DNA from: Escherichia coli
GTDB lineage: Bacteria > Pseudomonadota > Gammaproteobacteria > Enterobacterales > Enterobacteriaceae
DNA length: 64,000 bases
Direction: 5' to 3' (one strand)
Assembly: GCF_017348835.2 (NCBI RefSeq)
Contig: NZ_CP071375.1
The translations under genes were made by a program, and so were the position numbers. Shown in pieces: positions 30,249 through 30,358 of the stretch. Position 1 is the first letter of the stretch, and every line of letters starts with the position of its first letter. The notes under the pieces are model-generated. The model was not told where the DNA came from, did not search any database, and worked only from the letters and a program-made list of their open reading frames with translations.

Positions 30249-30260
30249 ACGAACTTCCAT

Positions 30261-30288
30261 GATAATGAAATTAATTATCGTTATCGAT
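30261..30288. promoter_or_regulatory. Fur box in the fepD / entS divergent promoter
   Basis: GATAATGAAATTAATTATCGTTATCGAT, close match to the Fur consensus, read directly. Confidence 0.75.
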
Positions 30289-30358
30289 CTTATTTGGATA
30301 TGTTAGCATGTGCAGCCTAAGAATAGGTATTTAAAATATTTGATGGCAAGGCATTGTA

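Follow-up and report, generated by a model that had tools for sequence, protein, structure and literature searches.

Divergent Fur-Controlled Regions of the Enterobactin Cluster

The closest described system is the fepDGC-entS control region of Escherichia coli K-12 (fepD-ybdA; Christoffersen et al. 2001, Lavrrar et al. 2002). The locus considered here is the same one, with the same genes, Fur box, and transcription start sites (TSSs), and its control region shows no difference from that of K-12. The fepD-entS Fur operator is already known, well studied, and ordinary. Positions 30200–30420 of the window, by which we mean the entire 64-kb stretch of E. coli DNA that was analyzed, match E. coli K-12 MG1655 at each of the 220 shared bases (100% identity) and are flanked by the same genes in the same orientation. 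Because the region matches MG1655 base for base, published K-12 data apply to it directly, and coordinates were converted by subtracting 591941 from NC_000913.3 positions or 591164 from NC_000913.2 positions. The coding sequences flanking the region in the window differ from those of most E. coli genomes by a few percent. The 2001 work by Christoffersen and the 2002 work by Lavrrar are said to have already published Fur footprinting and TSS mapping of the fepD-entS region and reportedly add mutational support for coordinate control of fepD and entS by a single site.

Divergent Fur-controlled regions also occur elsewhere in the window. The fepB-entC region (Brickman et al. 1990; window 32570–32757) belongs to the same cluster and likewise consists of a transport gene and a biosynthesis operon diverging from a Fur-controlled gap, but it possesses two Fur boxes and footprints, one per promoter, whereas at fepD-entS a single compound operator flanks the shared −10 core. 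The fepA-fes region (Hunt et al. 1994; window ~20554–20795) resembles fepD-entS in having one footprinted Fur region for two divergent promoters; the differences are a weaker consensus match (6 mismatches at best, at 20713), a longer gap, and a Fur cluster that lies ~150–170 bp from both start codons. Separately, the fepB-entC gap measures 188 bp in the window compared with 374 bp in K-12 MG1655 (14512–14885 of scanned locus L066). The additional ~186 bp in MG1655 separate the fepB start from its Fur box within the leader and form a GC-rich, palindromic, repeat-element-like segment (...GGGGAGAGGGTTAGGGTGAGGGG...CCCTCACCCCAGCCCTCACCC...).

Two further comparisons concern architecture rather than genomic neighborhood. 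Shared −10 bidirectional promoters (Warman et al. 2021; PMC12825309) form a class to which fepD/entS belongs by its 23-bp TSS spacing and overlapping −10 elements, with the difference that at fepD/entS a repressor operator flanks the core on one side. The synthetic F-F-x-R-R oligonucleotide, listed in Table 1 of Chen 2007 (Lavrrar & McIntosh 2003), has the same hexamer arrangement and likewise binds three Fur dimers; the natural site differs in its imperfect hexamers GAAATT and GTTATC and, by the tabulated values, is bound approximately fourfold more weakly (3.01 vs 0.78 nM). Taken with the evidence below, the region is very probably the bidirectional promoter-operator through which Fur controls fepDGC and entS in the E. 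coli enterobactin cluster.

Genes and Start Codons

The fepD/entS gap spans positions 30249–30358, comprising 110 bp with a GC content of 31% (52% for the whole 64-kb window). On the minus strand, fepD (29244–30248) is the first gene of fepDGC and was assigned from the list of open reading frames (ORFs), the NCBIfam model NF007760, and the RefSeq and K-12 annotation. In an NCBIfam profile search its product scored 627.7 bits against NF007760, above the curated cut-off of 428, and is by this model an Fe(3+)-siderophore ABC permease of the inner membrane that handles ferric-enterobactin. On the plus strand, entS (30359–31609; old name ybdA) encodes an MFS enterobactin exporter according to the ORF list, the annotation, and NF007792, against which EntS scored 716 bits (curated cut-off 324). 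The genes fepG and fepC follow fepD, and fepB is found past entS. In RefSeq-annotated E. coli genomes that are identical or nearly so, the names and starts of both fepD and entS agree with this assignment.

The start codons that delimit the gap are the ATG at 30248 on the minus strand for fepD and the ATG at 30359 on the plus strand for entS. A 338-residue fepD ORF beginning at an in-frame ATG at 30258–30260, four codons further upstream and abutting the Fur box, was considered and rejected as the true start. The ATG at 30248 was retained because NF007760 aligns from residue 5 of the 338-residue ORF, because RefSeq and K-12 annotation both use it, and because the ATG at 30260 is missing outside Escherichia; this Escherichia-specific codon is probably not used. 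Shine-Dalgarno motifs could be read from the sequence ahead of both retained starts, namely GGAAG at 30254–30258 on the minus strand for fepD, the TCC/GGA core of which is invariant in the alignment described below, and AAGG at 30348–30351 on the plus strand for entS, which is conserved in that form. Near the two ends of the gap, at 30258–30269 and 30352–30363, a 12-nt direct repeat (CATGATAATGAA / CATTGTAATGAA) with 83% identity was also seen, and it is most likely due to chance.

Divergent Promoters with a Shared −10 Core

Transcription of fepD starts at 30293 on the minus strand (621457 in NC_000913.2; 81 reads in Kim 2012), a position also marked as a Cappable-seq TSS in NAR 2026 Table S2, and the resulting 45-nt leader holds the Fur box. 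The primary entS TSS, found by Cappable-seq and in Kim 2012 and listed in NAR 2026 Table S2, lies at 30317 on the plus strand (621481 in NC_000913.2) and gives a 42-nt leader. A minor plus-strand entS TSS at 30345 (621509 in NC_000913.2; 6 reads in Kim 2012) leaves a leader of 14 nt. The underlying entries are 621457(−) for fepD and 621481(+) and 621509(+) for entS in the supplementary table of Kim et al. 2012 (PMC3415461), and in the Cappable-seq data of Ettwiller et al. 2016, the plus-strand rows give the TSS at 621481(+). Leader lengths computed here, 45 nt for fepD and 42 nt for entS, equal the published values. The hexamer TAAAAT at 30332–30337 could serve as the −10 element for the minor entS TSS; located outside the Fur operator, the promoter of that TSS would escape it.

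The promoter elements were taken from NAR 2026 Table S2 and Kim 2012. For entS, they consist of a −35 element TTATCG at 30281–30286, which lies inside the Fur operator and is conserved as TTATC followed by G or T, and an extended −10 element TGtTAGCAT at 30301–30309, both on the plus strand. On the minus strand, fepD possesses an extended −10 element TGcTAACAT at 30300–30308, which overlaps the entS −10 on the opposite strand, and a −35 element ACCTAT at 30323–30328 that is a weak match, is separated by a 17-bp spacer, and is moderately conserved. The −10 hexamers TAGCAT (30304–30309, plus) and TAACAT (30305–30300, minus) have positions 30304–30305 in common, and each is preceded by an upstream TG, such that the shared, pseudo-symmetric extended −10 core occupies 30300–30309. 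With 23 bp between the TSSs, in a class where the spacing is ~10, 18, or 23 bp, and with −10 elements that overlap on opposite strands, the region has the features of a shared −10 bidirectional promoter. Purified RNA polymerase alone yields both divergent RNAs in vitro from the 48-bp core at 30281–30328, and fepD/entS is one of five divergent pairs with TSSs 10–23 bp apart that were tested in vitro in that study (PMC12825309, NAR 2026).

A sigma-70 scan had proposed two other minus-strand promoters, TTGCCA/TATTCT and TCGATA/TATCAT; these were rejected in favor of TGcTAACAT because neither matches the mapped fepD TSS. As a side observation, the mutant names in Table S2 of PMC12825309 look swapped relative to the genome orientation, a tentative impression given that formatting was lost in the extracted text: the "fepD down" mutant changes TTATCG, a hexamer upstream of the entS TSS, and the "entS up" mutant converts ATAGGT to TGTCAA, which reads TTGACA on the fepD strand.

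The box lies within the fepD leader, but a role at the RNA level is not supported: no Rfam family scored above threshold, and neither of the two leaders folded better than shuffled controls (z-scores of −0.34 and +0.10).

A Compound Fur Operator

The operator is a 28-mer (GATAATGAAATTAATTATCGTTATCGAT) at 30261–30288 on the plus strand, and it occurs once in the window. Scored against the classical 19-bp Fur consensus GATAATGATAATCATTATC, it contains a first 19-mer (GATAATGAAATTAATTATC) at 30261–30279 on the plus strand that matches at 16 of 19 positions and forms a 9-1-9 inverted repeat with arms 89% complementary. A second 19-mer (GATAACGATAATTAATTTC) at 30267–30285 on the minus strand, offset by 6 bp and overlapping the first, matches at 15 of 19 positions (4 mismatches). 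Read as hexamers, the operator is GATAAT-GAAATT-A-ATTATC-GTTATC, an F-F-x-R-R arrangement in which the units match at 6/6, 4/6, 6/6, and 5/6 positions around the spacer A. The site therefore displays every sequence hallmark of a Fur operator that was considered: a consensus 19-mer, a 9-1-9 repeat, and an array of at least three hexamers in a 6-bp register.

Across the 64 kb scanned, the 19-mer at 30261–30279 is the only match with three or fewer mismatches to GATAATGATAATCATTATC, with no such match in any of 100 dinucleotide-shuffled versions of the window. The next-best matches are the boxes of fepB (32595), entC (32710), and fepA-fes (20713), all of them known. The gap is AT-rich (31% GC), as are Fur-like hexamers, and the resemblance might on that account be a chance product of AT-rich promoter DNA with no regulatory role. 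A test against local composition was run for this reason, and an equally good match arose in the 110-bp gap in 0.015% of 20,000 mononucleotide shuffles and 0.05% of Markov-1 simulations; the frequency of 0.015–0.05% among composition-matched simulations argues against chance, and the binding and conservation data bear on it further.

Binding of Fur in vitro has been published for the identical sequence. The DNase I footprint of Lavrrar 2002, as compiled in Table 3 of Chen 2007 (PMC2189734), covers 621394–621462 in NC_000913.2 and maps through the 100% alignment to 30230–30298, a span that combines primary and secondary protection. According to the same compilation, the secondary footprint at fepD-entS was seen at higher Fur concentration, has no predicted site, and is contiguous with the primary one. 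Chen 2007 (PMC2189734) also predicted a cluster of four Fur sites (19.4 bits) centered at 621437, corresponding to window position 30273, or −25 from fepD and −86 from entS, and reported that the fepD-entS site is gel-shifted by 150 nM Fur. For the natural entS site, the entry for Lavrrar & McIntosh 2003 in Table 1 of that paper gives three Fur dimers and an apparent Kd of 3.01 nM. Chen 2007 (PMC2189734) placed three M9 walkers at 6-bp intervals on the entS site, and these walkers and the three dimers agree with both the F-F-x-R-R parse and the overlapping 19-mers.

Expression data point in the same direction, with caveats. The genes fepD, fepG, fepC, and entS are all members of Fur iModulons and are all listed among strongly Fur-repressed genes. 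As caveats, Chen 2007 (PMC2189734) pointed out that the Fur cluster lies clear of any strong sigma-70 promoter prediction and that neither of two microarray studies called repression of the fepD/entS genes significant. An FNR ChIP-seq peak is also centered at fepD/entS, at 621417 (window 30253), and was classed by Myers et al. 2013 as showing no FNR-dependent expression change at a Fur-repressed operon; no obvious FNR consensus was seen near 30253.

The initial annotation had described a single, central Fur box serving both genes. "Single" holds in the sense that there is one operator; it does not hold at the level of the binding sites, given that the operator is a compound F-F-x-R-R array of overlapping 19-mers 6 bp apart that accommodates several dimers. 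An arrangement of two separate operators, one per promoter, with the box recognized here being one of them, has a precedent in the window, where fepB-entC displays two boxes (32595 and 32710; 4 mismatches each) with separate published footprints, and the secondary footprint reported at fepD-entS might be taken for the missing partner. Within 30225–30345, however, no second Fur-like 19-mer with eight or fewer mismatches was found outside 30261–30291, and the secondary protection, as compiled, adjoins the primary footprint and lacks a predicted site of its own. The TSSs are moreover offset by only 24 nt and served by a common −10 core, which leaves no room for separate operators, and such an arrangement is exceedingly unlikely. 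That one operator serves importer and exporter alike is instead supported by the complete identity to MG1655, the published Fur binding, and the lack of a second site in the gap.

Conservation across Enterobacteriaceae

Of 5416 E. coli genomes, 5278 match the 110-bp gap at 99% identity or better. With an 801-bp query spanning the coding flanks as well (window 29900–30700), just 6 of the 5416 reach this level. Within the species, the gap is thus better conserved than the coding DNA on either side, and the fepD/entS coding alleles of the window belong to a minority lineage, being 100% identical only to two pig isolates, PE164 and F2_81. All rare E. coli gap variants that were inspected lie outside the Fur box.

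Beyond E. coli, species-representative genomes were scanned with a degenerate pattern whose anchor was entS coding sequence rather than the box; this retrieved 61 loci, 60 of which encode EntS orthologues. Two loci were left out, one a false pattern match in Acinetobacter (L023) and the other truncated by a contig end inside the box (L060). Approximately 55 Enterobacteriaceae species from 15 genera display divergent fepD and entS genes around a gap of 107–112 bp. In these species the Fur 19-mer, usually GATAATGATAGTAATTATC (17/19), has two or three mismatches and lies 12–18 bp from the fepD ATG. While this distance is fixed across genera, that between the box and entS varies from 73 to 247 bp. 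GC-rich insertions of 125–170 bp in the entS leader of Raoultella and two Enterobacter species (L029, L030, L041, L044, L045, and L057) expand the gap to 236–284 bp and leave the box, the −10 core, and the box-to-fepD distance unchanged. A fixed distance to fepD alongside a variable distance to entS is a hint that constraint acts on the geometry of the fepD side.

When 41 distinct Enterobacteriaceae sequences were aligned with MAFFT, 15 of the 19 columns of the Fur 19-mer and 8 of the 9 columns of its extension proved invariant, giving 23 of 28 for the whole box. The shared −10 core (30299–30310) is invariant at 10 of 12 columns, the spacer that separates it from the box at 2 of 10, and the entS leader at 0 of 19. 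The box and the shared −10 core are the two most conserved blocks of the gap, and both are near-invariant. A box that stays near-invariant in ~55 species while the adjacent spacer varies is not what chance resemblance predicts, and combined with the in vitro binding of Fur to the identical sequence, this conservation effectively refutes an accidental origin, which has next to no likelihood left. More distantly, Yersinia (L014, L054, and L063) carries an EntS-like gene behind an upstream region of 236–283 bp with a different Fur-like cluster (AACAAATGATTATTATTATCGTTTTGATTATCATTATT), comprising four 19-mers in a 6-bp register with 4–6 mismatches.

Operator Placement and Repression of Both Promoters

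Twelve base pairs separate the box from the fepD ATG at 30248, and 70 bp lie between its other end and the entS ATG at 30359; the distances to both genes given in the initial annotation, immediately upstream of fepD and about 70 bp from entS, are thus accurate. Its description of the box as central is not: the operator sits at the fepD-proximal edge of the gap, on the same side of both TSSs, downstream of that of fepD and upstream of that of entS. Numbered from the mapped starts, the 28-mer spans −56 to −29 of entS, where it covers the −35 element, and +6 to +33 of fepD, where it is transcribed as leader. The entS −35 is contained in the right part of the operator, GTTATC-GAT. The 19-mer core occupies +15 to +33 of fepD, downstream of the TSS and off the −10 and −35 elements, and the published footprint extends to −19 of entS and −5 of fepD.

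Contacts of RNA polymerase with promoter DNA normally extend to about +20. With the published TSSs, the operator accordingly overlaps polymerase-contacted DNA at both the entS and the fepD promoters. TSSs that placed the box outside both promoters would have spoken against joint control; TSS mapping on both strands is published (30293, minus; 30317, plus), as is, in the compiled form, the Fur footprint on the identical K-12 sequence with protection at 30230–30298, and the mapped starts put the box within reach of polymerase in either direction. Because its core lies at +15 to +33, occlusion at fepD needs the operator extension and the wider footprint. Because the operator lies beside the shared −10 core and not over it, the contacts at stake differ between the promoters, namely the −35 element of entS and the segment from +1 to +33 of fepD.

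The position of the 19-mer core past the fepD start would also suit an operator that acts on entS only, occluding its −35 element, with fepDGC affected weakly through an inefficient roadblock or controlled indirectly by Fur. Against this, the compiled footprint reaches 30298, which is −5 of fepD and covers its start, and polymerase contacts to about +20 overlap the operator at +6 to +33. Furthermore, fepD, fepG, and fepC belong to Fur iModulons and are called strongly repressed, and across genera it is the distance between the box and the fepD ATG that is fixed (12–18 bp), whereas that to entS varies (73–247 bp). Control of entS alone is therefore improbable, and joint repression of both transcription units is the reading developed here.

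In the best-supported mechanism, the core at 30281–30328 harbors two opposed sigma-70 promoters with overlapping extended −10 elements and starts at 30317 (plus) and 30293 (minus), and the compound operator at 30261–30288 on the fepD side offers Fur dimers two or three 19-bp sites that overlap in a 6-bp register. Under iron sufficiency, Fe2+-Fur dimers would fill the operator and, at higher occupancy, spread over 30230–30298 (~69 bp), thereby covering the −35 element and upstream contacts of entS as well as positions +1 to +33 of fepD. RNA polymerase would then be excluded, or would form no productive complex, in either orientation, such that importer and exporter are repressed together. Under iron limitation, Fur would be released and fepDGC and entS would both be transcribed. 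We infer that the repression step at each promoter is steric occlusion.

The one-sided placement of the operator might additionally set importer and exporter apart in iron threshold or derepression kinetics, although we regard this as rather unlikely. Under such a scheme, Fur could occlude polymerase at entS and block initiation or escape at fepD, and competition between polymerase orientations at the shared −10 core could add to the difference.

Implications

The operator ties enterobactin export by EntS and re-import of ferric-enterobactin by FepDGC to one iron sensor, and the cell thereby avoids secreting a siderophore that it cannot recover. The switch is known at textbook level and was among the examples from which the packing of Fur dimers on overlapping sites was deduced. 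Its detection in the window shows that genuine regulatory sites are picked out by the scan and brings no new biology. That the operator and the common −10 core stand out as invariant islands in ~55 Enterobacteriaceae species is a modest extension of this published work.
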